Below are positions 3,778 to 54,285 of a DNA stretch of 58,511 nucleotides, piece after piece (the stretch's first letter is position 1; every line of letters starts with the position of its first letter). The stretch is from a virus (Duplodnaviria; Caudoviricetes). The notes below the pieces were generated by a model. That model was not told the DNA's origin. It worked only from the letters and a program-made list of their open reading frames with translations, and did no database searches. The stretch spans positions 1 through 58,511 of the IMG/VR virus record IMGVR_UViG_3300017913_000450; one strand, 5' to 3'. Both the position numbers and the translations under genes were made by a program.

Positions 3778-4025
3778 TGGAAATGGACGGCATGCTATTC
3801 TGGAACGTACTCTTGACGCTGGTCATTGCGCCAGCGTTTTGGACGTTCCGACAGTTCACGGCAGAAGTGAAGCGTCTTGACATCCTCCTGAACAAGACGC
3901 GCGAAGAGCTTGCCAAGCAATACATTACAAAAGACGAAGTCCATATGGACATCGGTCGCGTTATTGACCGTCTCGAAGCGCTCGACGCAAAGCTCGACCG
4001 CATACTCGAAGTCAAGGGACGATAA
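3777..4025 (+). CDS. Small membrane protein with coiled coil (holin-like)
   Basis: One N-terminal hydrophobic helix plus heptad-rich C-terminus; TAATG coupling. Confidence 0.55.
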   Translation: MEMDGMLFWNVLLTLVIAPAFWTFRQFTAEVKRLDILLNKTREELAKQYITKDEVHMDIGRVIDRLEALDAKLDRILEVKGR

Positions 4026-4047
4026 CCTTATCGACCCTGTGTATGAT
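4017..4047 (+). promoter_or_regulatory. Putative late promoter GGACGA-N19-TATGAT
   Basis: One of 11 copies with fixed spacing; 25 bp upstream of the 4073 start. Confidence 0.75.
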
Positions 4048-4072
4048 GGCCTTGTCTATATAGGAGGACACC

Positions 4073-4165
4073 ATGAAATCATCATCCACAAAGAACCGTG
4101 CTTTTGGCACCGTCGTAGCAGGCGCAGCAAAAGCCAAAAAAGGTAAGAAGCAGAAGCGCAAATGA
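4073..4165 (+). CDS. 30-aa basic micropeptide (MKSSSTKNRAFGTVVAGAAKAKKGKKQKRK)
   Basis: Not in the ORF track; strong AGGAGG RBS, directly after a late promoter, ATGA overlap with the next gene. Confidence 0.75.
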   Translation: MKSSSTKNRAFGTVVAGAAKAKKGKKQKRK

Positions 4166-4422
4166 CCTCAAAAAGTAAGATCAAAGCCATCGACGGTCTT
4201 ACGAAATCGCAAGGTTGGCGCATAATGCGCGAGGTTATGGAGCAAGAAATAGTGCAGGCTGCGATGCAGATTGCCGAAACTCCCACCATGCCACTCGATG
4301 AAATCAACTTCAGACGCGGTTCTATCTGGGCCGCCAAGACGATGTTGGAGTTACCTGAACGTCTTCGCATGAAGCTCGAAGCAGAGACCGTTCTCACAAA
4401 GGACGACAGCCCAGACGCCTAA
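4162..4422 (+). CDS. Small conserved pre-scaffold protein
   Basis: SQGWRIM...INFRRGSIWA pattern and position before the scaffold gene. Confidence 0.65.
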   Translation: MTSKSKIKAIDGLTKSQGWRIMREVMEQEIVQAAMQIAETPTMPLDEINFRRGSIWAAKTMLELPERLRMKLEAETVLTKDDSPDA

Positions 4423-4432
4423 AGGGCATACT
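4401..4432 (+). promoter_or_regulatory. Putative late promoter GGACGA-N20-CATACT
   Basis: Motif copy 50 bp upstream of the scaffold gene. Confidence 0.7.
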
Positions 4433-4482
4433 CGCAACATTAACGCAAACCGTCCCGCTTCGGCTGGACAAAGGAGATAAAA

Positions 4483-5517
4483 ATGGCAACACCGCAATCA
4501 CCCGATCAAATGGCCGCAATGGTTGACAACATCGCCGCCAAGCAGATGGGCGTAGCTCCGCAACAGGCCGAGCAGACACAGCAAGCCAAGGAGCCACCCA
4601 AAGAAAGCAGCCAAGAAAAAGCCGCAGAGAAAGGATCGCCCGAAACAGAAGGCGACAAAATCAGCGCAGACGCTGTTATTTACGAAGTTCAGTTTGGCGA
4701 CAACGACACGCGCAAACTAACTCCCCAACAAATTAAATCGACATTCGACCGCTACAGCGCGATGAACTACAAGAACGCGCAGTACAAGCCAGTCATGGAC
4801 TTGATCGACCAGTACATGCGCCAGACGGGCCAAAGCCCCAAGCAGATGGCTGAATATCTACAGAACGTCCAGAAAGCCCAGCAGTCAAACCCACAGATGG
4901 GCAACACTCAAGGCGACAAGTCTGGCCCTCCCTACGACAAAGAGCCACAAGCTGGCGACCTCGACGCATCCCTAAAGAAGTGGGAAGAAGAGAACGCAGC
5001 GTCTCTACCCCCTGGATACCGCGACATGATGGTCGGCAGCCAGACGCAGATGCAGCAGATGCAGCAGCAACTGGCTCAGACGCAAGCAATGCTCCGCCAA
5101 GTCTTGGGCAACGCACAAGGTATGACAGACGCAGCCCGCGCTGGTATGCAGCAAGGCCAAGCAAAGCAAGCAAATGCAGTGCGCCAACAAATTGCAAACA
5201 ACATTGACCGTAGCCAACAGGCTCTCAAGCTCCCAGACGAAAAAGCGCAAGACTTTATGGTCTTCGCAGCAGAGCGCGGCTACACAATGGAAGACTTTGC
5301 AGACATCCAGCTAACATTCAAAGTGATGTCAGACTTTAAAAACAACATGGACAGCCCAGAGATGGAGCGCATGCGCCAGATTGCACAGCGCAGACAGGCG
5401 TTTACAGGTTCTCTTGGCTCCACCCCAGCGTCTGGTGCAGCACCAGAAGCAGCGCCAGAAGGCAACCGTTTTGACCAGTTTGCTTCAGCCGCTATGGCGA
5501 AGCGCGGGATGGGATAA
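4483..5517 (+). CDS. Capsid scaffolding protein
   Basis: Q/E/A-rich, helical, directly upstream of the major capsid gene; AAGGAG RBS. Confidence 0.75.
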   Translation: MATPQSPDQMAAMVDNIAAKQMGVAPQQAEQTQQAKEPPKESSQEKAAEKGSPETEGDKISADAVIYEVQFGDNDTRKLTPQQIKSTFDRYSAMNYKNAQYKPVMDLIDQYMRQTGQSPKQMAEYLQNVQKAQQSNPQMGNTQGDKSGPPYDKEPQAGDLDASLKKWEEENAASLPPGYRDMMVGSQTQMQQMQQQLAQTQAMLRQVLGNAQGMTDAARAGMQQGQAKQANAVRQQIANNIDRSQQALKLPDEKAQDFMVFAAERGYTMEDFADIQLTFKVMSDFKNNMDSPEMERMRQIAQRRQAFTGSLGSTPASGAAPEAAPEGNRFDQFASAAMAKRGMG

Positions 5518-5542
5518 AAGACCTCGTATCCTCCCTGAACTA

Positions 5543-5568
5543 GCCCCGCTTCGGCGGGGCATTTTGTT
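5543..5568 (+). terminator. Rho-independent terminator
   Basis: GCCCCGC-TTCG-GCGGGGC perfect stem with UUCG loop, then ATTTTGTT. Confidence 0.8.
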
Positions 5569-5570
5569 AG

Positions 5571-5601
5571 GGACGAAAAACTTTTTCGAACACGCTACAA
5601 T
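5571..5601 (+). promoter_or_regulatory. Putative late promoter GGACGA-N19-TACAAT (major capsid)
   Basis: Motif copy immediately after the terminator and upstream of the capsid gene. Confidence 0.75.
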
Positions 5602-5723
5602 CCCCTTAATGCCACTATGTTGCGCTACGGCCTGACAGGCAGCAACTGGGCCAACGCGATGGTTTTGACCGCGTAGCTCGCTGAACCGCTTAACGTAACC
5701 AGCCTTTATAAGGAGACTTTCTC

Positions 5724-6917
5724 ATGGCTGCTATTCAAGGACTGCGCGGATCAGGCGAGTTTTCGACTGATTTCCGCCCTAAAAACTACCGTGAGCTTTT
5801 CACGCTTATGGAACCAAACGGCAACGCGCCACTGAACGCACTTTTGGCAATGGGATCATCTGAACCTACAGACGACCCTGAGTACAAAAACTTCCGTGAC
5901 GAACTGCCTGACCGCAAAATGACTGTGAACGGTGCTGTCGCTTCGACATCCACTGGCACAATCACTATCGACGCGTCTGACGACAACAAGTTTGCTGTCA
6001 ACGGATCAATCGTCGTGAACAGCGAAACTGGCGAAGTAATGCACGTTACTGCTGACACCACAGCGACCACGCTGACTGTCACTCGTAACATCGGCGGCAC
6101 AACGCACCAAATCGCTGACAACGCGGAACTGTTCATCGCTGGCTTCGCCGCACAGGAAGGTGGCTCATCGCCAACTGCAATTAGTTTCGACGCCACAGTT
6201 GCATCGAACTTTACGCAAATCTTCCGTACAGCGTTCCAAGTATCGAACACATTGAACTCAACATTCTTGCGCACTGGCGACAAGATGGACGAGGCAATGA
6301 CCAAAGCTCTAAAACTACACATGTCAGACATCGAACGTGCGATGTTCTTTGGTGTGAAGCACGAGAGCAACGGGTCAACTGCACAGCCAACTCGCTTCAC
6401 TGGCGGTTTGTTGAACAGCTTGACTAACGTCGTCGACATCAACACCGACTACGCCACATACGGCGGTTCTGGTGCTGGTAAGATGCCAGAAGAAGGTTTC
6501 GACAGCTTGCTGATCTCAACCATCTTCAAATATGGTTCGAAGCAAAAAATCGCCTTCGTAGGTGAAAACGTAGCGAACCACCTCCAGCAGTACGGTAAAG
6601 ACCGCTGGCAGCCAACTGCGCTAGAAGGTGCGTATGGTGTGAACCTAACACGCTATAACACATTCGCTGGCGACCTTATGGTTCACCTGCACCCGCAGTT
6701 CCGCCAAGTCCCTGGAATGAAGAACTCAATGATTATCGTTGACTTCCCATACCTATCTTACCGCTACCTTGAAGGACGCGACACTCAGTTGCTGGAAAAC
6801 CGCCAGTCACCTGATGCCGACAGCGTCAAGCACGAGTACCTGACCGAATGTGGTCTGGAACTTCTGCAAGACAAAGTTCACGCGTACATCAAGAACTGGA
6901 CAACGCGCACTGCGTAA
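5724..6917 (+). CDS. Major capsid protein (SU10/DUF5309-like)
   Basis: NFTQIFRTAFQVS, H..DIERAMFFG, RFTGG and EYLTECGLE motifs; follows the scaffold; AAGGAG RBS. Confidence 0.88.
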   Translation: MAAIQGLRGSGEFSTDFRPKNYRELFTLMEPNGNAPLNALLAMGSSEPTDDPEYKNFRDELPDRKMTVNGAVASTSTGTITIDASDDNKFAVNGSIVVNSETGEVMHVTADTTATTLTVTRNIGGTTHQIADNAELFIAGFAAQEGGSSPTAISFDATVASNFTQIFRTAFQVSNTLNSTFLRTGDKMDEAMTKALKLHMSDIERAMFFGVKHESNGSTAQPTRFTGGLLNSLTNVVDINTDYATYGGSGAGKMPEEGFDSLLISTIFKYGSKQKIAFVGENVANHLQQYGKDRWQPTALEGAYGVNLTRYNTFAGDLMVHLHPQFRQVPGMKNSMIIVDFPYLSYRYLEGRDTQLLENRQSPDADSVKHEYLTECGLELLQDKVHAYIKNWTTRTA

Positions 6918-6948
6918 GGACGACGAAGTCTAGTAAGTAGTTCATTAT
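6918..6948 (+). promoter_or_regulatory. Putative late promoter GGACGA-N19-CATTAT
   Basis: Motif copy starting right after the capsid stop codon. Confidence 0.7.
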
Positions 6949-6978
6949 AGGGGGCGTAGACACGCCCCCTATTTCTTT
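6947..6978 (+). terminator. Rho-independent terminator after the capsid gene
   Basis: ATAGGGGGCGT-AGAC-ACGCCCCCTAT 11-bp stem followed by TTCTTT. Confidence 0.8.
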
Positions 6979-6987
6979 GGAGGAAAC

Positions 6988-7326
6988 ATGGCAACCACAA
7001 CTAAAAAGACAACCGCCAAAGCAGCGCCAAAGCGCAAACGCGCACGCACTGCTGAAGGCCACTTCATCAAAGACGACCCGTCAACTCCAGACGTAAATGA
7101 AGCGTATGTTCAGGAAGAACCTGCGGCCCCAGCGCCAAAGGCAGAACCAGAATATGTTTGGTATCAGTCACGAGAAAAGGAACCGACAATGTTCCCTGTG
7201 GCAGGCATCAGCCCGATCCGCAATTTCAGCAGCGGACGTCTTGAGTACAGAGTTAAGAAAGACGACGTGGCCCGCTTTGAAAGCAACCATTTCGTACAGA
7301 ACGCCCGCATCGTCAAGAAGGTATAA
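6988..7326 (+). CDS. Hypothetical virion-associated protein
   Basis: GGAGG RBS; basic N-terminus with RAR..GHFIKDDPSTPDVNEA motif. Confidence 0.7.
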   Translation: MATTTKKTTAKAAPKRKRARTAEGHFIKDDPSTPDVNEAYVQEEPAAPAPKAEPEYVWYQSREKEPTMFPVAGISPIRNFSSGRLEYRVKKDDVARFESNHFVQNARIVKKV

Positions 7327-7329
7327 CCG

Positions 7330-7791
7330 ATGGCACAGAGCAACACGAACCCACACATCCGCGAGAAGAACTCGCCGCTAAATGCACTAGCGATGCAAGC
7401 GCTGCGCAGGTACGGCGACTTCCATGCTGGCACTGTGGATGGCGACGTGATGCTCATGTTTATCGAATTTGCCAACATGATTATCGACGAGATACGGATG
7501 CACCCATATTACGACGGTGTGGAGGTTGATTACTATCAGTCTCCCACCGACGTGCGTGCAATCTCTGATCCCATTGTAGTGGCGGGTCTTCTCTACCATT
7601 ACGCAGCCCAGCAGATGAGCGACAAGCTGCAAGTGTACACCCCACAGTTCCAGCGCATTATGAACCAGCGTTTGTGGGAGCAGTACAACGGCAACACAAA
7701 AATCCAGATGCGCATCACAGATGGCGGCACCAACAAGCGCAATGTGAATGGTGCCAAGACCAATACGAAAAACGGGACGGTTAGTTACTAA
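7330..7791 (+). CDS. Putative head-tail adaptor
   Basis: Helical ~150-aa protein between capsid and nozzle-like genes; positional inference. Confidence 0.55.
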   Translation: MAQSNTNPHIREKNSPLNALAMQALRRYGDFHAGTVDGDVMLMFIEFANMIIDEIRMHPYYDGVEVDYYQSPTDVRAISDPIVVAGLLYHYAAQQMSDKLQVYTPQFQRIMNQRLWEQYNGNTKIQMRITDGGTNKRNVNGAKTNTKNGTVSY

Positions 7792-9302
7792 TGTCGACCA
7801 GCACGCGTTCATCTACTGGCCTCAAGACCAAGACGTTCGTTTATGAGAACTTCCAAGGTCTCGACACGTCGCGCGACATCACATCGCTCGATACTGGCAA
7901 AGAACAGCACCTTTCCAAGATCAACAATGCGACCGCAGACTGGCGTGGCCAGATCGTGCGTGACGCAGCATGTCTCGAACGTGGCGGAGAGTATCGCGTA
8001 CAGCACGTCCGTTTCTTTGGTAAGAACGAACTCGTCTGGGCCGAGCGCACAGGTGCTGGCATTAACTTTAACTCCGAACGTGGCCACGTCTTGGAGAACG
8101 TACACGAGGCGACAGCCATTGTATCAAGCACGGTTTTTAACCAGAACGTGATCTTCGCTTCTCGTGCCAGACCAATGTATGCTTACGACGGCATCAACTT
8201 TAACCGTAACCAATCACCAGCGGCAGACTTGCTGCGCCCTGCATACGTCACGTCTGTGCAGCGACGTCTGGCAGTTGCGGGCATTCCAGGGCGTGAGACC
8301 CAAGTACACCTTTCTCGCGTCGACCAAGACCAAATCTTCCCAGACGACGAAGAGCCAGATAGCACAAGCGTCTTACGCGCTGGCTTTATCGACGTCGCAA
8401 ACCTACTAGGTACAGCCGACCAAATCACGGGCATTGGTTCTTTCGAGCAAAACCGTCTGGTTGTCTTCACGGCTGACCGCGCAATTATCTATCGCGTCGA
8501 TCCAGACCTAACGCGCTGGGTTATTGACGACAACGCAAACATCAACATCGGCTGCGCATCCCACAACACCATCGTAAACGCTGGCACTGACCTACTCTTT
8601 TGCTCGCGCTCTGGCGTCCATTCCATCAAGCGTTCGGAAGAAAACGGTATCCTCGTTTTCAGCTACTCGATGTCTGACAAGATCGACATTCTGTATCGCG
8701 AACTCTTCAACTCAGTAGCAGAGCCAGAAACAATCAGCGCGGTCTTTGACCAAGACACAGCGCAGTATCACATCTTCTTTCCTCAAGGCAGCGGCACATC
8801 ATGTAAGCGCCTCACTCTTGCGACAAACCCAGAGGGCGGGCAGCCCCAACCTAAGTTCTCAACTGGCGATTTTCTCAACGCCAACTGTGGTTCTTTCCTT
8901 GGAGGCAAACTTGTCTTGGGAACCAATGGTGGTGTCTACGAAGTCTTAAAAATCGAAGACGACCGCGAAGACGCATTCACCCCAGAGATGGAGGTCGTAA
9001 CTCCCTATCTTTGGCATGGCAGCTTAATGGATACAAAGGAGACAACCAGCGTCATCCTGCAAGCAACAGGCAAAGGCATCATTGAGATGGATGCCCTTGA
9101 TCTAAATGGGCGAATAATCGGCTCACTTGTCATCGAGGTAGATGACACATCGGACGACAACTACTTTCTCGATGTGCCATTATCCAAACAATATGAACGC
9201 AAGTGGTCGCATCGCTATCTCGCAGCCCAGTATCGCTTCAAAACCAAGGGCGGTGGTGGGCTTCTTAGGATAATTGGCTTCGCAGTGACCGTGAGGACGT
9301 AA
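7791..9302 (+). CDS. Putative tail nozzle / DNA stabilization protein
   Basis: FQGLDTS N-terminus, beta-rich, IGCASHNTIV motif typical of podovirus nozzle proteins. Confidence 0.65.
   Translation: MSTSTRSSTGLKTKTFVYENFQGLDTSRDITSLDTGKEQHLSKINNATADWRGQIVRDAACLERGGEYRVQHVRFFGKNELVWAERTGAGINFNSERGHVLENVHEATAIVSSTVFNQNVIFASRARPMYAYDGINFNRNQSPAADLLRPAYVTSVQRRLAVAGIPGRETQVHLSRVDQDQIFPDDEEPDSTSVLRAGFIDVANLLGTADQITGIGSFEQNRLVVFTADRAIIYRVDPDLTRWVIDDNANINIGCASHNTIVNAGTDLLFCSRSGVHSIKRSEENGILVFSYSMSDKIDILYRELFNSVAEPETISAVFDQDTAQYHIFFPQGSGTSCKRLTLATNPEGGQPQPKFSTGDFLNANCGSFLGGKLVLGTNGGVYEVLKIEDDREDAFTPEMEVVTPYLWHGSLMDTKETTSVILQATGKGIIEMDALDLNGRIIGSLVIEVDDTSDDNYFLDVPLSKQYERKWSHRYLAAQYRFKTKGGGGLLRIIGFAVTVRT
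9152..9183 (+). promoter_or_regulatory. Putative late promoter GGACGA-N20-CATTAT (intragenic)
   Basis: Motif copy inside the 3' end of the nozzle gene, 120 bp upstream of 9304. Confidence 0.55.
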
Positions 9303-9303
9303 A

Positions 9304-10863
9304 ATGGCTCGAATAAGACAACAATACCCACAGAACTATGGTTCGTCGGGAAACATCAATACTGAATTTGAAAACGTAATTCGGTATTTAAACGCAGCAG
9401 AACTCGGCAACAGCACCGTTGGCGAATTGTTGCAAAAAATCTTTGATGCAAACGGCAACTTCGATGGCCCCATCGAACTTCGCAAAGACAGTTCTGCTGG
9501 CATCCAATACCGCATCGGTGAGTATTCTGATGAGGCGAGCGGCTGGGTAACTCTGGCAACTCTTGCTGAACTGCGCGGCGAAAGTGGTCAGGACTTCGGT
9601 GAGATCGGTGCGCCAATCATCTTTGGCCGTGTCGACTACACAGCTACGTCTGGCCAGACTGCGTTTGACTACGCACACGAAAGCACAGACGAAATCCTTG
9701 TATATGTCGACGGTGTCTTGCAGCGTTCAGGCGGCTCTAACGACTACACGACTAGCGACACAGGCGGCTCCGCGTCTGCTGGTGTTGTCACGTTCAACTC
9801 AGGTCTGACCGCAGGTAACGTAGTGTCGCTGTTTAAAATTCGAGCCACAGCGATTACTGGCTTTACTCGCACAGACACTGACACAGTGAACTCACAAGCG
9901 GTGTTCCCGTTTACATTCGACGAAAACGCCAAGCTGCAAGTTTATAAAAACGGTATCTTGCAACGTGAAGGTGGTGCGAACGACTACACGCTACAGCCAG
10001 CGAACAATACGGTCACATTCACAACGGCTGTTCCATCTGGTAACACAGTCACAATTCTAACAGTTGAAAACACCTCTGTTCAGGCTGTGACTGGCATGAT
10101 GTTCGAAGAGAACTACGTCAATACCGCGTCTGGCTTGATCCGCTTCGACAAGATTACAATCGCAGACGGCGACATTGCCCAAGCAAAGGTTTCAAACCTT
10201 GTATCGAACCTTGGCGAAAAAGCAAAGATCACGGTCTCATCATCTAGTCCGACATCCGTAGCAACTGGCGACTTGTGGCACGACACGTCTGTAACGCCCA
10301 ACCAGCTAAAGTTCTATGACGGAACCCAATGGCTGCGCACGTCACCAGACAGTTCCCTCCCGACCTTTACAACAGCCAATTCTGGTCAGTTTGTTAAGGT
10401 GAACGGTACTGGTACAGCGCTAGAGTATGGCACGGTCGACCTCTCCTCAGTCGTACCTGTCACACAAAAGGGCGCAGCCAATGGCGTCGCGTCATTAGAT
10501 AGTTCTGGCCGCCTTCCCTCATCGCAGTTGCCAGAAGTTCTCTCCTCAGACAGCCTCTATCTAAATGTCGCGACGCCTGCCGCTCAAAACTATGCTATCA
10601 AACGCATCTATCGCCAGAAGCTACGGGTTGATGGCATCTCCATCCAGACGACGTCTGGCACATGTACCGTCCAAATCGCTTTCGACGGAACTGGCTATGG
10701 CTCAACATTTAGCGCGTCTTCTGTCGTGAACGAAAGCGTACTTGGCACACCACTGGAAATCGACGCAACAACTGTCTCTCACGAGATTGGTTTCCTTGTG
10801 ACGAACGTATCATCGACATCCCAACTTGAAGTCACCCTCGCGGTCAGTGTGGTGGCCAGCTAG
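9304..10863 (+). CDS. Tail/tail-fibre structural protein
   Basis: Two YTAT.GQT.F...VY..G.LQ...DYT modules, GDLWHDT...LKFYDGTQW and GAANGVASLDSSGRLP motifs. Confidence 0.75.
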   Translation: MARIRQQYPQNYGSSGNINTEFENVIRYLNAAELGNSTVGELLQKIFDANGNFDGPIELRKDSSAGIQYRIGEYSDEASGWVTLATLAELRGESGQDFGEIGAPIIFGRVDYTATSGQTAFDYAHESTDEILVYVDGVLQRSGGSNDYTTSDTGGSASAGVVTFNSGLTAGNVVSLFKIRATAITGFTRTDTDTVNSQAVFPFTFDENAKLQVYKNGILQREGGANDYTLQPANNTVTFTTAVPSGNTVTILTVENTSVQAVTGMMFEENYVNTASGLIRFDKITIADGDIAQAKVSNLVSNLGEKAKITVSSSSPTSVATGDLWHDTSVTPNQLKFYDGTQWLRTSPDSSLPTFTTANSGQFVKVNGTGTALEYGTVDLSSVVPVTQKGAANGVASLDSSGRLPSSQLPEVLSSDSLYLNVATPAAQNYAIKRIYRQKLRVDGISIQTTSGTCTVQIAFDGTGYGSTFSASSVVNESVLGTPLEIDATTVSHEIGFLVTNVSSTSQLEVTLAVSVVAS

Positions 10864-10871
10864 GAGCTTAA

Positions 10872-11348
10872 ATGAAGGATAGGAAGCAGACAAAGGTAGA
10901 GCAAGCATACGAAGCGGCACTGCGTGCCAGCTTCGATGCTTTGCGTCTTCCTAAATCTGCATCCGACTTCTTGATTGATATGTGGTTCTGCATACAAATG
11001 TTTGATGACGTCGCCGATGGCGACGAGGTCTCACGCGACAATCTTGACCGTGTTCTATGGTCTACCCTTGTCGGCATGCCGATGAACCCATTCTATGCGT
11101 CCAACGTAAAAACACTCATCCCAGTAATCGCAACGCAAATCCTGAAGTGGCAGGGGTCTGACAAAGTCGAGCAAGACGGAAAAGCAGACGCCCGTAGTTA
11201 CGTCTGGCGGGCTGGTTACTATGACCTTGTACTTATAATCGTCCAGCTTTGCCATGGCTATGAAGCAGCGATCAAGGCGGCTCCCACCGTTCTGGCTTTA
11301 TACGGCGAAAAACTTGAGGACTACTTAAAGGAGTTCAATCATGCCTGA
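10872..11348 (+). CDS. DDxxD-motif helical protein, isoprenoid synthase/prenyltransferase-like
   Basis: QMFDDVADGD motif (codons 11004-11018), apparently all-helical; AGGAG RBS; overlaps the next gene. Confidence 0.5.
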   Translation: MKDRKQTKVEQAYEAALRASFDALRLPKSASDFLIDMWFCIQMFDDVADGDEVSRDNLDRVLWSTLVGMPMNPFYASNVKTLIPVIATQILKWQGSDKVEQDGKADARSYVWRAGYYDLVLIIVQLCHGYEAAIKAAPTVLALYGEKLEDYLKEFNHA

Positions 11349-13749
11349 TCCAGTAACAGCCCTTGTTGTGGTCGGTGGTGGCGTTGCGGTAAACGAAAGC
11401 AGCAAAAACCGAAAAGCAAAGAAAGAAGCGGAAGCGAAGGAAGCTGCCCGCCTTAAACGTCTGTCAGAAGCAGTCGACGCTCGCGAAACAGAGTATTCAG
11501 GTCTTGCCGACACCTACAACACAGCGGTCGATACCTACAATACGAACCTCGCAAACACAGTTTCTGGCCTAACAGGTTTCACGAACACAATCGGTGGCCT
11601 CACAATCGCCGATTTGTATGACGACCCTACAACAGCGGCTAACGAAAACCAGTATGACGCCTTGATGAACTCTCTCAGCACAATGGAGAGTAACCTAAAC
11701 AACTTGTCTTTTGATGCGGATCGCCCGACATTCAGCAGTATTCTAACCACAGACGATGGCACTGCCACAGTTGACGACATCCCTACACTCGGAACAGCCA
11801 ACACTGGAAACGTCAGTGGCTATCTCGACACAATCTCAGACTTACGCTCTTCTCTGCAAGGCTTGAGCCGTGACCGTCGTAATGAAGAAAGCCGCATTTC
11901 GAACTTCCAATCGGACCTAGACTTCGACCTTGGCCAGCTTGGCCGCGATGTTGGTCGTCTTGGAATAGGCGATACAGACATGCTGGGTGGTTATGAAGAC
12001 CAACTAGCTGACTTGCAGCGTAGCTACGATACATTCTCGTCTGATATTCTCGACCAAACGGGCGGCCTCAACTTTGATAGCAGCGGAATAACCAATGCGA
12101 TCACAGGTTTGCGCAATGAAAGAGACACAGAACAGACGCGTATCGACAATTTCGCGAACACATTAGGTACGACCGCAGGAACATACGCCGATAACCTGTC
12201 TGGCTATAACATCACAAACCTCGATGATCTAAATAACCTGCAAGATTTGATCGACGCGCAGCAAGATGCGGCGATGGACTTTGACAGTGAGCTAGACTTT
12301 GACTTCTCGAAACAGCTTCAAAGCCTTGGTCAAACTGAAGCAGGCGTTCAAGGATTGCTTGATGACCGATCCGACGAGCTTGATCGTATCTCAGACGCAG
12401 AGCGTAAGGCACTGCGAACTGCTACATCTCTTGATCGCTTCTCCGACAGTCTTGGTATTGCTGACATCGACAGCATGAACCAGCTTGGCTATGACCTTGA
12501 GGACTTTAACAGTGGAATTGCCGACTTTGAGAGCTTGCTAGATTTCGACTTCAGCGAAGCGAATACAAAAGCCGCCGAGGCACAAGCTGCACTTGAAGGA
12601 CTAAGAACAGCCCGTACTGCCGAACTTGACCGTATCGACCAGTTTGGAAACGACTTAACTGGCTTTGCTTCTCAATATGCAGACGATCTTGGCGGTTACA
12701 ACATTGCAAACATCGACGAGATGAATGCACTGCAAGAGTTAATTGATGCACGCCAAAAAGAAGCTCGCAACTTCGACAGTGAATTAGACTTCGACTTTGA
12801 AGCACAGCTTAGAAACTTGGGCGACGTAGAAGGCGATCTTGGCGACCTGTTCCTTGAACGTCAGCTTGAAGAGGGCCGCATCGAAGATGCACAACGCGAC
12901 TACCTGCGCACAGCGCAATCGCTTGATCGCCTAGCTGACAGCACAGGCATCTACAGCAAAGCTGGCATCGACGCCCTACAGGAAGACCTTGACAACCTTA
13001 ACGCAGACATTGGTGGCTTCACCTCGCTACTCGACTTTGACTTTGGCGATACCCAAGAGTTTAGAGATCAGGCAGGTACAGACATTGCAGACCTATACTC
13101 TCGTCGTGGCGAAGCACTAGATGCAATCAACAACCCAATCTCTGGCATCTCTGAGGGTGCAGCGGGTCTCGAATTATACGACGAAACAGGAATGCGCGAT
13201 GCACGGGGCGAACTGTCAGACCTTAATCGTGAATTGGCTCGCTTTTCAGGTGGCCGCGTAGATGACATCCAAGGCAACGTCGACACAGCCATTGGAGAAA
13301 TCGACACACGTCTGGAAGAACTTAACACATATCGCAACGAGCTAGAGACCAAGGCACAAGGGCTTCTCGAACAGGTCAACAACGCCACATACTATGGCCT
13401 TGGCGATCTGGAAGGCGACCTTGGCAGCCTAGACGCGCAGCAAGCAGAGATCGAATTATACAACGCACAAGTCGCGATGGATGAACTCGATCAGCTACAA
13501 GACCGTCTGTATGGCGAACGCAACCGCCTAGAGCAAGACGCTCAGAACGTGGCAGCACGTCGGAGCAGCGCACAAGAAGCTCTTCTGAACGCGCTGAACG
13601 CATTTGGTCTACCGCAGTTCGACAGTCTGTCTCAGATTGATCCGATGTCCATGGAGCAGTTCATGGCCATGATACAGAACAACGAAGAAGAAGAAGACTT
13701 TTCGCAAAATCCAAACGCATTTAGCAGCAATGTAATTCGCGTTGGATAA
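11341..13749 (+). CDS. Putative ejection/internal virion protein with 82-aa acidic repeats
   Basis: MPDPVTALVVVGGG N-terminus like podovirus ejection proteins; F.S.LDFDF units every 246 bp. Confidence 0.6.
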   Translation: MPDPVTALVVVGGGVAVNESSKNRKAKKEAEAKEAARLKRLSEAVDARETEYSGLADTYNTAVDTYNTNLANTVSGLTGFTNTIGGLTIADLYDDPTTAANENQYDALMNSLSTMESNLNNLSFDADRPTFSSILTTDDGTATVDDIPTLGTANTGNVSGYLDTISDLRSSLQGLSRDRRNEESRISNFQSDLDFDLGQLGRDVGRLGIGDTDMLGGYEDQLADLQRSYDTFSSDILDQTGGLNFDSSGITNAITGLRNERDTEQTRIDNFANTLGTTAGTYADNLSGYNITNLDDLNNLQDLIDAQQDAAMDFDSELDFDFSKQLQSLGQTEAGVQGLLDDRSDELDRISDAERKALRTATSLDRFSDSLGIADIDSMNQLGYDLEDFNSGIADFESLLDFDFSEANTKAAEAQAALEGLRTARTAELDRIDQFGNDLTGFASQYADDLGGYNIANIDEMNALQELIDARQKEARNFDSELDFDFEAQLRNLGDVEGDLGDLFLERQLEEGRIEDAQRDYLRTAQSLDRLADSTGIYSKAGIDALQEDLDNLNADIGGFTSLLDFDFGDTQEFRDQAGTDIADLYSRRGEALDAINNPISGISEGAAGLELYDETGMRDARGELSDLNRELARFSGGRVDDIQGNVDTAIGEIDTRLEELNTYRNELETKAQGLLEQVNNATYYGLGDLEGDLGSLDAQQAEIELYNAQVAMDELDQLQDRLYGERNRLEQDAQNVAARRSSAQEALLNALNAFGLPQFDSLSQIDPMSMEQFMAMIQNNEEEEDFSQNPNAFSSNVIRVG
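12277..13044 (+). repeat. Intragenic 246-bp (82-aa) degenerate tandem repeat
   Basis: DFDSELDFDF (12277), DFESLLDFDF (12523), NFDSELDFDF (12769), GFTSLLDFDF (13015). Confidence 0.85.
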
Positions 13750-13762
13750 AAGGAGTAAGTAG

Positions 13763-15556
13763 ATGTCATTTTCCTCAATGCTCCAAATAGGCATGGGTAC
13801 GCTTGGCATGATGCAAGCGGGCCAGCAGTACCGAGACGGCATACGCGCTCAGTACGAAGCTATGGCTTTGCAGCGTGACCAGTACAACCAGCAGTACGGC
13901 TCTTACCTAGACGCGATGCGTCTGCAAGCCGAGGAAAATGAATACATACGCCAGCGCGAACTTCTCGACCGCCTGACGCGCAGCGGGGAGCGTGACTTTG
14001 CAGAAGACCAACTGTTTAACTACCTCGATACAATCGGGTCAGAACGCCAGTACGGCATAGACAGACAGCAACTTCTTGACCGAGACGCTGCACGACAGCG
14101 TGCATTCCAACTCCAGCAGCTTCTTCAAAACCAAAACCTTCGCGCCGATGAACGGCGTTTTGCTTTAGAGCAGCTACGCATTGCGCAAGATATTGCAGCA
14201 GGTGAGCGTGACTTCACAATGGGCATCTACCAAGACGAGGCAGATCGTCTGGCAGAGCGCCAAGCATTGATGGATGATGAGGCACGAGAGATGCAGCTAT
14301 ATCGCTTACGCGAAGCTGCACGAAACAGAGACCTAGTGGCAAGCGAACGAGAGTTCGCTAAAATGCTTTTAGGGCAAGCCCAAGACGTAGCGGGTGCAGA
14401 GCGTGACGAGCAAATGGCTCGCTTCCTCGAAGACCGTGAGACCCGCGCAGACGAACGTCAGTTCGTCGTCGATCAGTACGAAGACTATCTCCGTCAGGCT
14501 CAAGCAGAGCGCGACGAAGAGATGGCTATCCGAGGTCAAATCTTAGCGGGAGCAGACGACTTACAAAGCAGACTGGAAGCAACGGCAGCCCAACTTGGCT
14601 ACGTCCCAGAGATCGAGCAGATCACACCAGAGATGATTGACGCTGAAGTTGCACGTCGAACTGGCGAGTACATGTCAGACGTTGACCGCGCAGCGGAAGC
14701 CGTCGCTTCAGTCAACGAGGCAGACCTCATCCGCGCTGGCATCGACGTATCAACTGGCGGCACCCAGCGCCGTGGCGAGATCGCAGAACGTCTGGCGAAG
14801 GAATATCAGAACGCACGCAGCCGTGCTTACGACGACGCAATGGGCTACATCTCTGGCCGCAGCGACGCAATGGCACGCAATGTCGGCAACATTATGGATC
14901 GTCGCACAGCAATGCTTGGCGAAGCTGCCAACATCGGCGGTGCAGAGCTTGGCATCTTGCAGAACCTGCGCTCTCTACCAAGCGCAACTGGTGCGTATCA
15001 GATGGCATCCGCTATCGGCTCTGGCATCCTAGATCGCAACATCACAAGCGCAAACAACTACCGAGCGCCAATCGCCGTAAACTCTGGCCTATACGACGCA
15101 TCGAACGCGATGACGTCTGGCATGTCCAACTACGACTTTAACCTGATGAACCTTATGTCTGGCATCAAGAGCGGCAACAACTATAGCTCACCAGTAGCTA
15201 TTGGCTCTTCAATCTATGACGGCAACATTGGCGGCAACTATGCTGGCACACTGAACCCAGTGTCTGCCGCGTCTACTGCTGGCTTGAACATCGGCTCTTC
15301 AGTCATGGCTCCATATAATCAGACCCTAACCAACCCAATGACATATCTGGGCAACGCGAACAGTTATCAGAACAGTTACATTAGCGGCCTGATGGGACAG
15401 TATAACCAAGGTTATAACAGACTGTCTGACGCAAGCTCTAACTTCGGCGGGCTGTTAGATGATCTGGCTGGTGATATAGATGCAGGTGGCGGATATGACA
15501 AGTTTAGCACTTGGTTCAGTTCTAAATTACCAAGTTGGGCTGGAGGAACGACATAA
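13763..15556 (+). CDS. Putative ejection/internal virion protein
   Basis: Hydrophobic Gly-rich N-terminus, long Q/E/R/A coiled coil, G/N/S-rich C-terminus. Confidence 0.6.
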   Translation: MSFSSMLQIGMGTLGMMQAGQQYRDGIRAQYEAMALQRDQYNQQYGSYLDAMRLQAEENEYIRQRELLDRLTRSGERDFAEDQLFNYLDTIGSERQYGIDRQQLLDRDAARQRAFQLQQLLQNQNLRADERRFALEQLRIAQDIAAGERDFTMGIYQDEADRLAERQALMDDEAREMQLYRLREAARNRDLVASEREFAKMLLGQAQDVAGAERDEQMARFLEDRETRADERQFVVDQYEDYLRQAQAERDEEMAIRGQILAGADDLQSRLEATAAQLGYVPEIEQITPEMIDAEVARRTGEYMSDVDRAAEAVASVNEADLIRAGIDVSTGGTQRRGEIAERLAKEYQNARSRAYDDAMGYISGRSDAMARNVGNIMDRRTAMLGEAANIGGAELGILQNLRSLPSATGAYQMASAIGSGILDRNITSANNYRAPIAVNSGLYDASNAMTSGMSNYDFNLMNLMSGIKSGNNYSSPVAIGSSIYDGNIGGNYAGTLNPVSAASTAGLNIGSSVMAPYNQTLTNPMTYLGNANSYQNSYISGLMGQYNQGYNRLSDASSNFGGLLDDLAGDIDAGGGYDKFSTWFSSKLPSWAGGTT

Positions 15557-17811: not shown

Positions 17812-17843
17812 GGACGACACCTTGCGACCTCTCCAGTTATCAT
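17812..17843 (+). promoter_or_regulatory. Putative late promoter GGACGA-N20-TATCAT
   Basis: Intergenic motif copy upstream of the giant virion gene. Confidence 0.75.
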
Positions 17844-17881
17844 AGGCGTGATTGCTAACGGATAACTGGAGAACCGCCGCA

Positions 17882-40520: not shown

Positions 40521-40956
40521 TCCTCTTCTCCGCATACAGACGTGCAAACGGATCAGGTTCTGAGAAGTTTGCGTCCCAGTCTTTGGGCAGCCCACCTGTC
40601 ATCATCATGTATCCGTTGTCGTCTATCTCCTCGAACTCTTTGCTTGTTCGGTAAATCAGTTGCGCTCTGCTATTCACGCCCACCTTCTTGAACATGCCTC
40701 TGACATGTACCTTGGCGGTGTTAATGCTGACGCCCATCCTTTCCGAAATCTCTTGATTGTCCGCCCCTCTGAGCAGCATTTGGTACGCGACGTGTTGTTT
40801 CGTCGTGAACTTATCCAAAAACGTAACTTCGTTCTGGGGGGGGATTGGCGACGCAGCTACGTCTTTGGACGCGCCACCTGCCAAATCCTGCAATCGCAAG
40901 CAATGGCTTATAAGTTGGTCGAGCTTCCACTCGATCCGATCCAGTTGTGTTGTCAT
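40495..40956 (-). CDS. LuxR/GerE-type HTH regulator
   Basis: FTTKQ...GADNQEISERMGVSINTAKVHV..MFKKVGVNSRAQL; overlaps the integrase start. Confidence 0.85.
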   Translation of the reverse strand: MTTQLDRIEWKLDQLISHCLRLQDLAGGASKDVAASPIPPQNEVTFLDKFTTKQHVAYQMLLRGADNQEISERMGVSINTAKVHVRGMFKKVGVNSRAQLIYRTSKEFEEIDDNGYMMMTGGLPKDWDANFSEPDPFARLYAEKRNDTTTDAA

Positions 40957-49385: not shown

Positions 49386-49416
49386 GGACGACCCGATATG
49401 CGCGAGGAGCTAAACT
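49386..49416 (+). promoter_or_regulatory. Putative late promoter GGACGA-N19-TAAACT
   Basis: Motif copy at the early/late strand switch upstream of the terminase genes. Confidence 0.6.
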
Positions 49417-49643
49417 GTTGATTAGACTGATGTTGCCCCTTTTAGGGGCAGTGTTCAGGCGCAAGCGAGGGGTCGAGCCGAAACGTCTCAGCCCTGAAAG
49501 GGCCACACACACCCGTAGGAAGGGAGCGAAAACCGTGCAAAATCAGCCACTTAGCCTCGCATGTGTCAGCCATTTGCCATGCAAATGGTCATATGCGCGT
49601 GCGGGGGGCGGGGGTCATCCCGCCGCCGACGTTTTTGCGTTAG

Positions 49644-50189
49644 ATGTCACCTCCCCTACCGCGCGAGCAATCGGAGCAAAAATTGAAAACGTCGGAACCA
49701 GAAAGAAGGAAGGTCACAAAAGGCACTTTTGAAGGCGAGCAGGTCAAACTCACATGCACAAACTGCAAGCAAGAGTTCTGGACCCGCGCCTCACATGAGG
49801 ATCGTCGCAAGTTCTGCTCAATAAAATGCAGGAAAGAAGCGCCAATAAAACGAAAGGCAGATGAAATGGCAAAACTAATGGAACAAACTGAACTCACACC
49901 AGCGCAATCCGCAAAAATCCGTGGCCAAATTGCGAACTATGTGCGCGATCAGATCACAGATGCGCACCAAGTGGTTATGGGCGGCAAAGAATGGAACCCA
50001 ACGCAAGCCCGTGTGTTCTCAGCGCTCCTCAACAAAGTCGTGCCAGACCTAAACGCCTCATATGTGCAGCACGAACACACAACTAAGGAAGTAACAGACC
50101 TCTCACGCGAAGAACTAGAAGCCATCGCCCAAGGCGTGTCCACAATCGAGGTCGAATATAAGGAGCTAACCCAAGATGAAGATAAGTAA
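49644..50189 (+). CDS. Putative terminase small subunit (possible N-terminal Zn ribbon; alternative start 49866)
   Basis: Q.R....LLNKVVPDL...DLSREELEAIA; two genes upstream of TerL; CTNC...FCSIKC. Confidence 0.6.
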   Translation: MSPPLPREQSEQKLKTSEPERRKVTKGTFEGEQVKLTCTNCKQEFWTRASHEDRRKFCSIKCRKEAPIKRKADEMAKLMEQTELTPAQSAKIRGQIANYVRDQITDAHQVVMGGKEWNPTQARVFSALLNKVVPDLNASYVQHEHTTKEVTDLSREELEAIAQGVSTIEVEYKELTQDEDK

Positions 50190-52018: not shown

Positions 52019-52020
52019 AA

Positions 52021-52051
52021 GGACGACCAACTAACAATAGCAAGGTATCTT
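52021..52051 (+). promoter_or_regulatory. Putative late promoter GGACGA-N19-TATCTT (portal)
   Basis: Fills the terL-portal gap; -10 ends 6 bp before the ATG. Confidence 0.7.
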
Positions 52052-52057
52052 TAAGCC

Positions 52058-54019
52058 ATGGCAGTAAACGGACCAAAAAGCACACCAAGTCTCCCATCGG
52101 GAAGCAGTTACCGCAGCGCGGAATACACTGCTGGCCCTAACGAAGGCGTGGTCGTCGACCTTTCAGAGTTTGCAGATCGTCTGACAAACTACGAAGACAT
52201 CTCTGCGGACCTCACGGAGGAGCAGGAACGCCGCATCGTGGACTACGTCAAGTCCATGGTCGACATGTCATATTTCAAAATCCGCAAACGCTACGATCAT
52301 TGGAAGGAGGCAGACCGCGCACATGACGTTTATGTCAACCCAGACGCGACCGATTTCCGCGAAAAGGCGGTCATCGCGGACACCAGAGCTATCGCCGACA
52401 CAGTCCTTACCTATCTCATGGCAGCACTCGGCGGACGTAACCCGATGTTCCAACTTGAGGGTCTCAACACAAAATCAAGAAAGAGTAGCCTTATACTCGA
52501 ACGCGTTTTACACCAGCAAATGCGCAGAACCGCTGGCGAAGCTCGTTTGGCCCAGCTTCTTCTTGATAGTGTACGCTATGGCTTTGCTCCTACCAAGGTA
52601 GTCTGGGACGCCAAGTCCAACCAGAACCAACTGGTAAACTTCGACCCTCGCCGCTGCTTCCCTGACCCGCGCGTCAACTGGGGCGACTGGGAGAACATGC
52701 AGTACATCGTCTTCTCAGACTATGTATCCTACAACTCCCTGCTCTACTCTGGCCTCTATCCCAAGCTCAAGAAGTTCCCAGCCCTGCGCCACAAAATAAG
52801 CCCGCCACGCAACTCATGGAATGCGCATCACTGGCACAAGGAAGAAGGTCGCGGTCTCAATATAGACCCAGCCCAGCCGCACCAACGCGAACGCTTTGAC
52901 CATGCCTACTTCACTCTCGGCGACGCACGCGTCATCGACGAAGCATGGGTCCGCCTCTCTGGCCATGAGATCGGCATCCCGTCCATCGACCAAATCTTCC
53001 TCGTCATAACAATCCTTGACGAGAACGTCGTGATCCGCATGCAGCTAAACCCATACGGACGCCAGTTCCCCGTCGTCATCGGTGGCCTGTACCAAGACGC
53101 GCACAAGACATTCGGTCAATCACTCTACGACCTGATCCTGCCGATGCACGACATCGCAACATACCTACTCCGCTCTCGCATCGACAACGTATCGGCAGCC
53201 CTCAACAACTTAATCTTTGCAGACCCAACCCAAGTCAGCGTCCCAGACCTCATCGACAGAAACCCATGGGGCATTGTTCGAACGATGCCAGGGGCGAAGC
53301 CTGGGGACGGCGTCTTCATTGCCCAAGTACCAGACGTAACTCGTGGCCATTTTAACGACATAGCCGCGATGTCAGAATTGAAGCAGCGAGTATCCGCAGC
53401 TTCGGATGCGCAGCAAGGTATGCCAACGGCAGACGGTATCCGCACAGCCACTGAAATCCAACGCTTAACACAACTCGGTTCCCAGCGTCTTGGCGTCATT
53501 GCTCGCATCATGTCTGCAACCACCATCCGCCCGATGGTGCGTATGATGACGGCCAACATCCAAGACAGTCTCTCGATGTCTGGCTCAATCAAGATCGACA
53601 GCAGCAACATGCCGACCCAACTCGCCGACATGGTTCAAGATGGCTATATCGACTACGACGTAGCCAAAGACCTGCAAGGCGACATCGACTACCTCGTCAT
53701 TGACGGCACACTTCCTGTTGAACCTACCCGCAACGCCGAAACATGGATGAACATGCTTCAGATCATGTCTCAGACTGGCTTGAACATGGAATACAACGCG
53801 GGCCAGATCGCAGAAGAAGCCATCCGCGCGATGGGCATTACAGACCTAGATCGCTTCCGCGTCTCCAAGGAGCAACTCAACGCCGAGGGCATGTCGCCTT
53901 CCCAACAGTTGGCTCTGATGGAGAAGATGCGTGGTGCATCAGTACAACCCAATGAGCAAGTCCAGAGCGAAATCCAGAAGGGCAACCTCATTCCAATGTC
54001 GGAGGCACGACGCGCATGA
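52058..54019 (+). CDS. Portal protein
   Basis: 653 aa after TerL; RYG...KVVWD, FPDP, QQG...RTATEI motifs of podovirus portals. Confidence 0.85.
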   Translation: MAVNGPKSTPSLPSGSSYRSAEYTAGPNEGVVVDLSEFADRLTNYEDISADLTEEQERRIVDYVKSMVDMSYFKIRKRYDHWKEADRAHDVYVNPDATDFREKAVIADTRAIADTVLTYLMAALGGRNPMFQLEGLNTKSRKSSLILERVLHQQMRRTAGEARLAQLLLDSVRYGFAPTKVVWDAKSNQNQLVNFDPRRCFPDPRVNWGDWENMQYIVFSDYVSYNSLLYSGLYPKLKKFPALRHKISPPRNSWNAHHWHKEEGRGLNIDPAQPHQRERFDHAYFTLGDARVIDEAWVRLSGHEIGIPSIDQIFLVITILDENVVIRMQLNPYGRQFPVVIGGLYQDAHKTFGQSLYDLILPMHDIATYLLRSRIDNVSAALNNLIFADPTQVSVPDLIDRNPWGIVRTMPGAKPGDGVFIAQVPDVTRGHFNDIAAMSELKQRVSAASDAQQGMPTADGIRTATEIQRLTQLGSQRLGVIARIMSATTIRPMVRMMTANIQDSLSMSGSIKIDSSNMPTQLADMVQDGYIDYDVAKDLQGDIDYLVIDGTLPVEPTRNAETWMNMLQIMSQTGLNMEYNAGQIAEEAIRAMGITDLDRFRVSKEQLNAEGMSPSQQLALMEKMRGASVQPNEQVQSEIQKGNLIPMSEARRA

Positions 54020-54285
54020 ATAAACTGGCAGCCCTCGCATCACAATGTGATGCAAAAACAGTCGACTACGTCACAGAAGCCATCCGAGTGGCCGTAGCTG
54101 ACCAACAGCAAGAAAACGTAAAACTATCGGAACGCATCTCACTTCAAAGGGCTGAGATCGACGCCCTGAAGCTCCGCCTTGCGGAGCTAGAAGGGCAGTC
54201 AAACTCGGCCTCTGGGGACGACAAGTACAGCCTCACTAAGGCAAAGTTAGTGCGTCTGATGAAAGAAAATGGATGGTATGACTAA
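54016..54285 (+). CDS. Small coiled-coil protein
   Basis: GGAGG RBS; coupled at both ends. Confidence 0.65.
   Translation: MNKLAALASQCDAKTVDYVTEAIRVAVADQQQENVKLSERISLQRAEIDALKLRLAELEGQSNSASGDDKYSLTKAKLVRLMKENGWYD
54216..54247 (+). promoter_or_regulatory. Putative late promoter GGACGA-N20-CAAAGT
   Basis: Motif copy 37 bp upstream of the large tail fibre gene. Confidence 0.55.

Follow-up and report, generated by a model that had tools for sequence, protein, structure and literature searches.

In sigma appropriation by MotA/AsiA of phage T4, the MotA box lies at about -30, 11-13 bp from a sigma-70-type -10 element that is kept, and the early genes are transcribed from ordinary host promoters. 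The activators Mor/C of phage Mu, Ogr of P2, and delta of P4 are dimers that bind to dyad-symmetric sites further upstream, and Ogr is zinc-binding. The MotA/AsiA system and the late activators of Mu and P2 are the described systems closest to the element considered here, a GGACGA box that is followed after 19 or 20 bp by a -10-like hexamer YANNNT and that recurs in a complete virus record of 58,511 bases (IMGVR_UViG_3300017913_000450; this whole stretch is termed the window in the following). Neither their defining proteins nor their site geometries were found in this DNA. The motif is the hallmark of a very probable promoter class that is common to a large family of marine phages, and a dependence of these promoters on a phage factor is likely.

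The locus resembles T4 MotA in the kept sigma-70-type -10, the replacement of the -35 element by an asymmetric phage box, a proposed monomeric reader, and early genes on host-type promoters. Unlike the MotA box, the box here takes up -37 to -32 and ends 19-20 bp before the -10, and the GA or GACA of the -35 register is retained. Homologs of MotA or AsiA are absent from the PHROGs, Pfam, and NCBIfam matches of the open reading frames (ORFs) that were scanned, a search that very distant homologs could escape. Shared with Mor/C and Ogr/delta are a temperate phage and, as proposed here, a small activator for several late promoters without a good -35 and the use of the host sigma-70 holoenzyme. In contrast to the Mor/C and Ogr sites, the GGACGA box is asymmetric and strictly oriented, as only (T)A(G/A)GGACGA is conserved and no second half-site appears in a position table of aligned sites; the family searches gave no match to the Mor or Ogr families. 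A preliminary description of this DNA had likened the putative activator to MotA and Mu C, a likeness that is inferred by analogy.

The SPO1 factors gp28 and gp33/34 replace the host sigma and use their own -10 consensus. The sites described here are similar to SPO1 promoters in forming a bipartite class with an unusual upstream box (in SPO1 such classes set the temporal order), and differ in a -10 that looks like the one of the host primary sigma and in the lack of a recognized sigma gene. Promoters of extracytoplasmic function (ECF) sigma factors combine a GGAAC-like -35 with a CGT-type -10; the sites do not belong to this class, as the -10 is TAnnnT-like and no sigma family matches above the cut-off.

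The bipartite motif and its conservation

The GGACGA hexamer is present 28 times on the + strand and 14 times on the - strand of the window. Together with YANNNT at a spacing of 19 or 20 it accounts for 11 sites, all of them on the + strand (Table 1). Dinucleotide-preserving shuffles (n = 100, both strands scored) give an expectation of 1.49 +/- 1.17 with a largest value of 5, and 0/100 reach 11. The motif thereby withstands the comparison with shuffled and minus-strand backgrounds that the preliminary description had proposed. On recheck, the 11 coordinates and 11 downstream hexamers of that description are all correct, as is its count of nine boxes reading GGACGAC. Behind the + strand box, YANNNT forms a sharp peak at spacing 19 (seven sites) and spacing 20 (four sites), and the control spacings of 15-18 and 21-26 yield 0-3 per pair of spacings. 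No spacing peak is seen behind the 14 hexamers on the - strand, and boxes with one mismatch are not enriched (11/328 on +, 10/303 on -). The two spacings differ in the sequence behind the box: all four spacing-20 sites read GGACGACA, and CA follows the box in 0/7 spacing-19 sites.

The preliminary description had placed the sites upstream of late genes and mostly in intergenic gaps. A + strand gene start lies at most ~230 nt downstream of every site. The intergenic placement applies to only about four of the 11, as the boxes at 5571, 6918, 17812, and 52021 are clearly intergenic. Those at 4017, 4401, 35203, and 37613 overlap the ORF ahead of them, within its final 25 nt or at its stop codon, and the one at 49386 is located in a divergent region within a doubtful - strand ORF call. 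The two remaining boxes lie inside coding sequence, 150 nt (9152) and 70 nt (54216) from the 3' ends of ORF 7791-9302 and ORF 54016-54285, respectively.

Conservation in relatives, likewise named as a check in the preliminary description, is family-wide. A search with the capsid protein led to 80 related viral loci (63-96% identity), which left 39 capsid-upstream regions after removal of near-duplicates. These regions diverge freely except for the box in a fixed place and the -10 behind it. GGACGA is found 129-195 nt before the capsid ATG in 35/39 regions; in the other four, GGATGA or GGTAGA stands in its place. Without preselection for a -10, 32 of the 35 boxes are followed by YANNNT at 19 or 20, and the other three by TAAACC, ACTATT, and CATAGC. 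Throughout the loci of the relatives, distinct box contexts number 347 on the + strand versus 42 on the - strand, and TANNNT peaks at spacing 19 (60) and 20 (15).

Motif counts in 12 complete genomes, given as virion-gene strand/opposite strand, are 11/0, 11/1, 9/0, 9/0, 9/0, 8/2, 9/1, 7/0, 11/1, 9/3, 2/0, and 1/0. Ten of the 12 are thus motif-rich, with 7-11 copies in the first of these counts and 0-3 in the second. The exact box is largely lost in the two box-poor genomes (G003 and G005, 39% G+C), which carry GGAAGA (6/23 and 4/25 on the virion strand) and GGTAGA instead. In an unbiased ranking of all hexamers with a -10 behind them, GGACGA comes out on top in G002 (9/18, p 3e-7) and G004 (9/28, p 8e-5), and a similar ranking by count puts it first in 6/13 loci of relatives. 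Of the 96 sites of the 12 genomes, 82 are located at most 350 nt upstream of an orthologous gene start, recurrently before the capsid gene, the gene after it, the giant gene, the portal and fiber genes, and the first operon gene. The site at 4017 has an orthologous site upstream of the 4162 homolog in 6/12 genomes, and the site at 49386 has a counterpart upstream of the homologous gene in 7/12, at a distance of 225-228 nt in five of these.

Sites are also found in prophages of Poseidonocella sp. (Alphaproteobacteria), Kistimonas scapharcae (Gammaproteobacteria), and a metagenome-assembled genome (MAG) labeled Aquaspirillum, which we take to be a betaproteobacterium. The box is unchanged in all three, which argues against a lineage-specific host factor. 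The Kistimonas and Aquaspirillum-labeled prophage relatives (bacterial contigs L109-L111) extend the host range of the family beyond Roseobacteraceae; two more matches, in MAGs labeled archaeal and Flavobacteriales, are probably binning errors.

Among deposited phages, Megablast finds Roseobacter phage CRP-810 as the sole relative of the window (74.9% identity over 23% of the first 25 kb). The CRP-810 paper (PMC11288001) presents phages of the CRP-810 type as a diverse marine family with a global distribution, and the words "promoter," "sigma," and "RNA polymerase" are absent from its text. A full-text literature search for GGACGA, promoter, and phage returned matches on other subjects, as judged by titles and the openings of abstracts. 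A conserved late-promoter code would define transcription units in hundreds of uncultured phage genomes and would make the lysis-lysogeny cascade of a temperate roseophage directly accessible.

Promoter register and local architecture

The preliminary description had proposed a phage-specific promoter class in which the box takes the place of the -35, and comparative evidence strongly supports it: the motif is strand-specific, occupies the same gene positions family-wide, and is absent from the early region. Judged from sequence comparison, the 11 sites very probably form a real promoter class. In the position table (56 spacing-19 and 32 spacing-20 non-redundant sites), the downstream hexamer is sigma-70-like, with T or C, then A, a preference for T at position 3, and a final T; in the 11 window sites, the A in second place and the T in sixth place are there by construction. 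The first base is C in 17/56 spacing-19 and 21/32 spacing-20 sites. Outside the box, T, A, and G/A precede it at -3 to -1 in the spacing-19 class, and CA follows it in the spacing-20 class.

An element like TTGACA with a spacer of 16-18 bp passes a consensus scan at 2/11 sites (17814 as ACGACA-N18-TATCAT and 37619 as CTGACC-N18-TATACT, 9/12 each), and the box puts A and C at -35 and -34. In the late region 1-19000 the scan finds 11 consensus sigma-70 promoters, two of them on +, versus 15.9 expected, and hence no enrichment. The box had been described as sitting 2-3 bp further upstream than usual. The underlying spacing is correct, but the displacement is partly a matter of register and not a shift of the whole box, since the final GA or GACA is in the register of TTGACA. 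With a spacing of 19 and the hexamer at -12 to -7, the box falls at -37 to -32, and its last two bases are G-33 and A-32 of a TTGACA with a 17-bp spacer. At all four spacing-20 sites, GACA falls on the final four bases of a TTGACA with an 18-bp spacer. The distinctive part is therefore GGAC (approximately -37 to -34), which replaces TT and extends upstream. Region 4 of sigma could still contact GA(CA) while another protein reads GGAC.

Motif, strandedness, spacing, and positional conservation are observed; from these we infer that the sites act as promoters, that host sigma-70 uses them, that a factor is required, and which factor this may be. The explanation that accounts best for the data, phage-specific late promoters that are read by host RNA polymerase together with a phage factor, with the protein of ORF 34545 as the best candidate, is as a whole somewhat probable. 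Nine sites would drive the packaging, virion, and lysis operon (from 49386 through the record end to 28712), and the sites at 35203 and 37613 would drive a small block of accessory genes. The downstream hexamer would act as an ordinary sigma-70-type -10 and be recognized by the primary sigma of the host through its region 2. At approximately -40 to -34, (T)A(G/A)GGAC would take the place of the TTG of the usual -35, and the GA or GACA behind it would keep the normal -35 register. Because TTG is replaced, the host holoenzyme alone should use the sites poorly. A phage factor made from an early, repressor-controlled operon would read GGAC(GA) and recruit or reposition RNA polymerase, and its early synthesis would set up an early-to-late cascade.

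It is improbable that the host holoenzyme reads the sites alone or together with a host factor that is broadly conserved; in this case GA(CA) would be a weak -35, enhanced by the GGAC upstream of it. The canonical register of GA or GACA and the two sites scoring 9/12 would fit this, and there is no gene that all 10 motif-rich genomes have and both box-poor ones lack. Selection for sigma-70 should, however, give TTGACA, as at the early promoter, whereas the exact hexamer is kept in 35/39 capsid-upstream regions despite diverging flanks; the invariance of GGAC within the selected sites is uninformative, as it is fixed by site selection. The box is also the same in hosts of at least two proteobacterial classes, and we know of no alternative sigma common to these classes with a GGACGA-type consensus. 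Reading with the help of a phage-encoded factor is, on the sequence evidence, the probable course.

The predicted late promoters around the capsid gene are interlaced with terminators. A terminator and then a box precede the gene, and a box, a -10, and a terminator succeed it (6918-6972), a layout that recurs in relatives. A start ~7 nt past the 6918 hexamer lies in the 5' arm of the hairpin, so that transcripts from 6918 could not form the terminator and transcripts of the capsid gene could. Upstream of the portal gene, the arrangement box-N19/20-hexamer-N6/7-ATG is found in 11/11 genomes with a portal start; the hexamer is YANNNT in nine of these and TACAAC or TAAAAC in the other two. The predicted start falls on the AUG, and the portal message would apparently be leaderless. 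AGG or GAGG located 12-13 nt ahead of the portal ATG could serve read-through transcripts. Two small design features are testable, the putative promoter within the terminator of the capsid gene and a portal message that apparently lacks a leader.

It is very unlikely that the sites are not promoters at all and instead represent loading or pause sites for antitermination (in the style of Q or RfaH-ops), sites of other DNA processes, or by-products of Asp-Asp codons. Two sites are in coding sequence, four overlap ORF ends as GAC-GAC codons, and several adjoin terminators; a sigma-dependent pause element also resembles a -10. Processive antitermination, however, needs one loading site and not nine per operon, and codons cannot explain the capsid, portal, giant-gene, and post-capsid sites, which are intergenic. 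Around the 4401-type site the encoded C-termini vary while the box stays, and the fixed distance of 6-7 nt between hexamer and portal ATG fits a transcript start.

Metatranscriptome contigs from four runs of three studies that map to 3900-9400 cover the capsid gene from 5632, 5655, and 5677 to 6924 and 6938. No pieces spanning 5556-5632 or the capsid terminator were seen among them; contigs cannot show starts or ends, and this counts neither way. A small hairpin is conserved in the 5' leader of the capsid gene (5619-5636; loci L017-L111); its GC-UACG-GC core, with a UNCG-type loop, is invariant. The four outer pairs of the hairpin covary, with 10-12 of 26 sequences changed on both sides, and it has no Rfam match; a second conserved pairing, GCG...CGC, follows it. 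The leader behind the predicted promoter at 4401 (~4455-4470) carries a similar hairpin motif, CCCGCTTCGG. The leader of the first late gene (49416-49644, ~228 nt) is hairpin-rich. Its end, immediately ahead of the ATG at 49644, is formed by a G/C-rich stem (GGGGGCGGGGG...CCCGCC) and a T run; relatives share this stem, which may act in attenuation, packaging, or replication.

Candidate readers of the box

The absence of an evident sigma or RNA polymerase gene, noted in the preliminary description, agrees with the family searches: Sigma70_r2, Sigma70_r4, and RNA polymerase families give nothing above curated cut-offs in PHROGs (32 ORFs), Pfam (34 + 24), and NCBIfam (18). The sole sigma-related hits are weak ones on the LuxR-like protein. 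A phage sigma-like factor or an unrecognized phage RNA polymerase that reads both halves of the motif without host sigma-70 is accordingly unlikely. Precedents for such factors are SPO1 gp28 or gp33/34 and the polymerases hidden in large virion proteins of crAss-like phages. A bipartite motif with fixed spacing is typical of sigma-type promoters, several large or universal proteins are without family assignment, and C, frequent here as the first base of the -10, is unusual for Escherichia coli sigma-70. The downstream element nevertheless looks like a plain sigma-70 -10, and the large unassigned proteins sit in the virion module and are hence late products, whereas a packaged polymerase would be expected to act at early genes.

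Three genes had been named as possible activators. The one at 34545 is present in 12/12 genomes and stands; those at 40495 and 38507 are each absent from 2/10 motif-rich genomes (38507 from G013 and G004) and are weakened. A conserved late-promoter code would narrow the candidates for a new way of redirecting host RNA polymerase to one to three small proteins.

The protein encoded by ORF 34545 is the only DNA-binding candidate found in all 12 genomes, and it also occurs in the Poseidonocella and Kistimonas prophages. A large protein collection holds 135 homologs at E <= 0.001; among the 120 of these 135 matches that are listed, no functional name is given beyond "hypothetical protein" and two stray labels. 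In 32 diverse homologs D36, T37, L38, K39, R40, and L42, which form a DTLKR.L stretch, are invariant, and an F..AKY linker is conserved. The 80 loci found with the 34545 alignment are close relatives. Five records contain distant homologs (P0114, P0102): four of them have the capsid gene of the family at 61-66% identity and 4-6 sites, and the fifth, which is half complete, gives no capsid match. Of 400 sampled gammaproteobacterial genomes, one has the protein, the Kistimonas genome itself. A homolog with 69% identity is also encoded in the CRP-810 record (L009, ~14026-14331, - strand), where no coding sequence is annotated, between the resolvase gp22 and the primase gp23.

The AlphaFold2 model of the protein (pLDDT 76) was compared with 48,161 chains by VIA-align, and the top match is the DNA-binding domain of GcrA (5yiu_A, Z 6.6, root-mean-square deviation 2.7, 47 residues). 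A language-model feature search placed the protein with a viral cluster in which 53% of the members carry Pfam GcrA (score 0.94). Foldseek against the PDB returned only generic helix-turn-helix (HTH) regulators (E >= 0.35), and a profile search of PDB sequences gave nothing informative. GcrA is described as a monomeric sigma-70 cofactor with a short cis element as its target, methylated GANTC located within the spacer or past the start; its C-terminal domain contacts domain 2 of sigma (PMC9976885). The 34545 protein may be like Caulobacter GcrA in its N-terminal HTH, which has the GcrA domain as its best structural match, and GcrA works as a monomer on a short element, as is proposed for the 34545 protein. 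Unlike GcrA, it ends in a zinc ribbon, which stands where the C-terminal domain that interacts with sigma-70 domain 2 would be, and this domain was not found.

That the phage factor is the 34545 protein is a tentative identification. As proposed, the 97-amino acid (aa) protein would act as a monomer on the asymmetric box. A further step, which is rather doubtful, would make it a new kind of phage factor in which a GcrA-like HTH monomer reads GGAC beside a truncated -35 and the zinc ribbon holds host RNA polymerase. If true, the protein would lend the sigma-70 holoenzyme a surrogate -35 reader that is usable in hosts of different proteobacterial classes, and this would help to explain one late-gene code across the varied hosts of a globally distributed family. 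A predicted complex of Poseidonocella sigma-70 residues 590-682 with the 95-aa HTH-zinc protein of the prophage scored 0.02 versus a mark of 0.32, which counts neither way.

Several observations weigh against the 34545 protein or the late-promoter scheme as a whole. The GcrA-fold match is weak, as the next entry has Z 5.8 and is in the tie range, and values of Z <8 may reflect a common arrangement; none of 32 family members matches Pfam GcrA (PF07750) at E <= 1. Because the gene occurs in the box-poor genomes, too, and goes together with the phage family as a whole, its link to the box is circumstantial, and it could equally encode a replication, switch, or other regulatory protein. Protein constraint could account for the retention of the sites at 9152 and 54216, where the coding sequence is conserved. 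The DNA of the former encodes a conserved S-D-D-N-Y-F...V-P-L-S stretch and is kept in 11/12 genomes; since it survives in both box-poor ones, protein constraint may explain it. The latter combines a weak -10 with its coding location and is ambiguous. Finally, the large proteins of 3216, 802, 758, 597, and 588 aa have no family match above cut-off, and one of them may conceal a polymerase or sigma.

A covariation hint was considered and judged too weak: the otherwise invariant L of DT-L-KR is I only in G003 and G005, which mostly use GGAAGA. The hint is weakened by its restriction to one lineage, by the confounding G+C content of 39%, and by G004, which has M in this position yet uses GGACGA.

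The LuxR/GerE-type protein of 40495-40956 is an improbable reader of the box, although GerE-family activators can bind at the -35. It matches Pfam GerE with 40.7 bits versus a cut-off of 23.5 (E 1.8e-10), which establishes family membership and not a role at the box, and shows weak Sigma70_r4_2 similarity (E 0.0017). It is found by a profile hidden Markov model in 8/12 genomes and in the Kistimonas prophage contig. A LuxR-like gene is also reported for CRP-810 and 107 related contigs (PMC11288001). However, the same profile (E <= 10, all stop-to-stop ORFs) finds none in G002 and G010, which have nine and seven sites, respectively, and the syntenic gap in G002 holds only ORFs of 48 and 87 aa without a GerE domain. 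The overlap of the gene with the integrase gene suggests a role in lysogeny control.

Early region and gene map

The proposed early operon that contains ORF 34545 is preceded by a near-consensus sigma-70-type promoter, TTGTCA...TATAAT, that is conserved in relatives. Three perfect palindromes ACACCTNNAGGTGT are found, at 31812 and 31972 in the early divergent promoter region and at 34469, for which ~0.01 exact matches are expected by chance, and they are probably operators of the prophage repressor. The half-site GTCAACACCT recurs upstream of the ORF 34545 homolog in G001, CRP-810, G002, and G011. ORF 34545 shares ~225 nt of upstream non-coding DNA, which holds the early-promoter palindrome, with a divergent 85-aa ORF, and this layout fits a repressor-controlled regulator. 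The 85-aa ORF (34061-34318, - strand) has a sigma-70-like TTGACT-N16-TAAAAT (10/12) pointing towards it, and the divergent arrangement resembles a genetic switch.

The gene map (Table 1) was built from PHROGs, Pfam, and NCBIfam searches of the window ORFs. It includes an integrase block, and the phage is therefore temperate.

Table 1. Positions of the predicted late promoter sites, early elements, terminators, and genes of the window
Feature	Position	Strand	Remarks
GGACGA box-N19-TATGAT	4017-4047	+	upstream of small ORF (ATG ~4078) coupled to ORF 4162-4422
GGACGACA box-N20-CATACT	4401-4432	+	upstream of ORF 4483-5517; kept in 5/12 genomes
TAGGGACGA box-N19-TACAAT	5571-5601	+	predicted promoter of major capsid gene; directly behind terminator 5543-5560
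TAAGGACGAC box-N19-CATTAT	6918-6948	+	directly behind capsid gene stop; -10 abuts terminator hairpin 6947-6972
GGACGACA box-N20-CATTAT	9152-9183	+	inside ORF 7791-9302, 121 nt ahead of ORF 9304; ambiguous
TAAGGACGACA box-N20-TATCAT	17812-17843	+	upstream of gene for 3216-aa virion protein; 9/12 genomes
GGACGAC box-N19-CATAAT	35203-35233	+	end of RusA-like gene, upstream of ORF 35258 (DUF6321); 4 genomes
GGACGAC box-N19-TATCCT	37613-37643	+	overlaps stop of ORF 36666-37613, upstream of ORF 37697; 4 genomes
GGACGAC box-N19-TAAACT	49386-49416	+	predicted first promoter of packaging/virion operon, ~228 nt before ORF 49644
GGACGAC box-N19-TATCTT	52021-52051	+	portal ATG (52058) 6 nt past hexamer
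GGACGACA box-N20-CAAAGT	54216-54247	+	inside ORF 54016-54285, 38 nt before gene for 1396-aa fiber protein; 6 genomes
Intrinsic terminator, hairpin and T run	5543-5560	+	directly upstream of predicted capsid promoter
Intrinsic terminator after capsid gene	6947-6972	+	predicted start of promoter 6918 in its 5' arm
Early sigma-70-type promoter (TTGTCA...TATAAT)	31966-31997	+	upstream of primase-helicase operon containing ORF 34545
Perfect palindrome ACACCTCAAGGTGT, operator-like	31812-31825		
Palindrome ACACCTCAAGGTGT, second copy	31972-31985		inside spacer of early promoter
Palindrome ACACCTGTAGGTGT	34469-34482		over promoter-like TTAACA-N16-TATCGT, 63 nt upstream of ORF 34545
Candidate box reader, 97 aa	34545-34838	+	N-terminal three-helix HTH, C-terminal CxxC...CxxC zinc ribbon
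LuxR/GerE-type HTH protein	40495-40956	-	adjoins integrase gene; weaker candidate
ArsR/IclR-type winged-helix protein	38507-38758	-	possible repressor
Packaging, virion, and lysis operon	~49644 through record end to 28712	+	family searches
Zinc-ribbon protein, perhaps small terminase	packaging/virion operon	+	family searches
Large terminase	50399	+	family searches
Portal	52058	+	family searches
Fiber genes	packaging/virion operon	+	family searches
Major capsid	5724	+	family searches
3216-aa protein	17852	+	gene map
Endolysin	28164	+	family searches
Recombination block	32055 to 28702	-	family searches
Primase-helicase (32224), small HTH protein (34545), RusA-like resolvase, then accessory genes	to 38173	+	
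CobS/CobT-like genes, LuxR/GerE-type protein (40495-40956), integrase, ArsR-type winged-helix protein	49512 to 38507	-	

The ORF of the 3216-aa protein (17852-27502) has no PHROG, NCBIfam, or PDB sequence match, and its sole match is a sub-threshold one to ART-PolyVal (ADP-ribosyltransferase) at residues 2116-2307. Translation probably starts not at the TTG at 17852 but at an ATG behind GGAG near 17880, and a CTCCAG...CTGGAG inverted repeat lies across the -10 and the ribosome-binding site. An Rfam scan of the window gave a tRNA as its only match. This tRNA-Thr (GGT) gene (39417-39491) adjoins the integrase gene (39522-40595), which suggests integration at a host tRNA gene.

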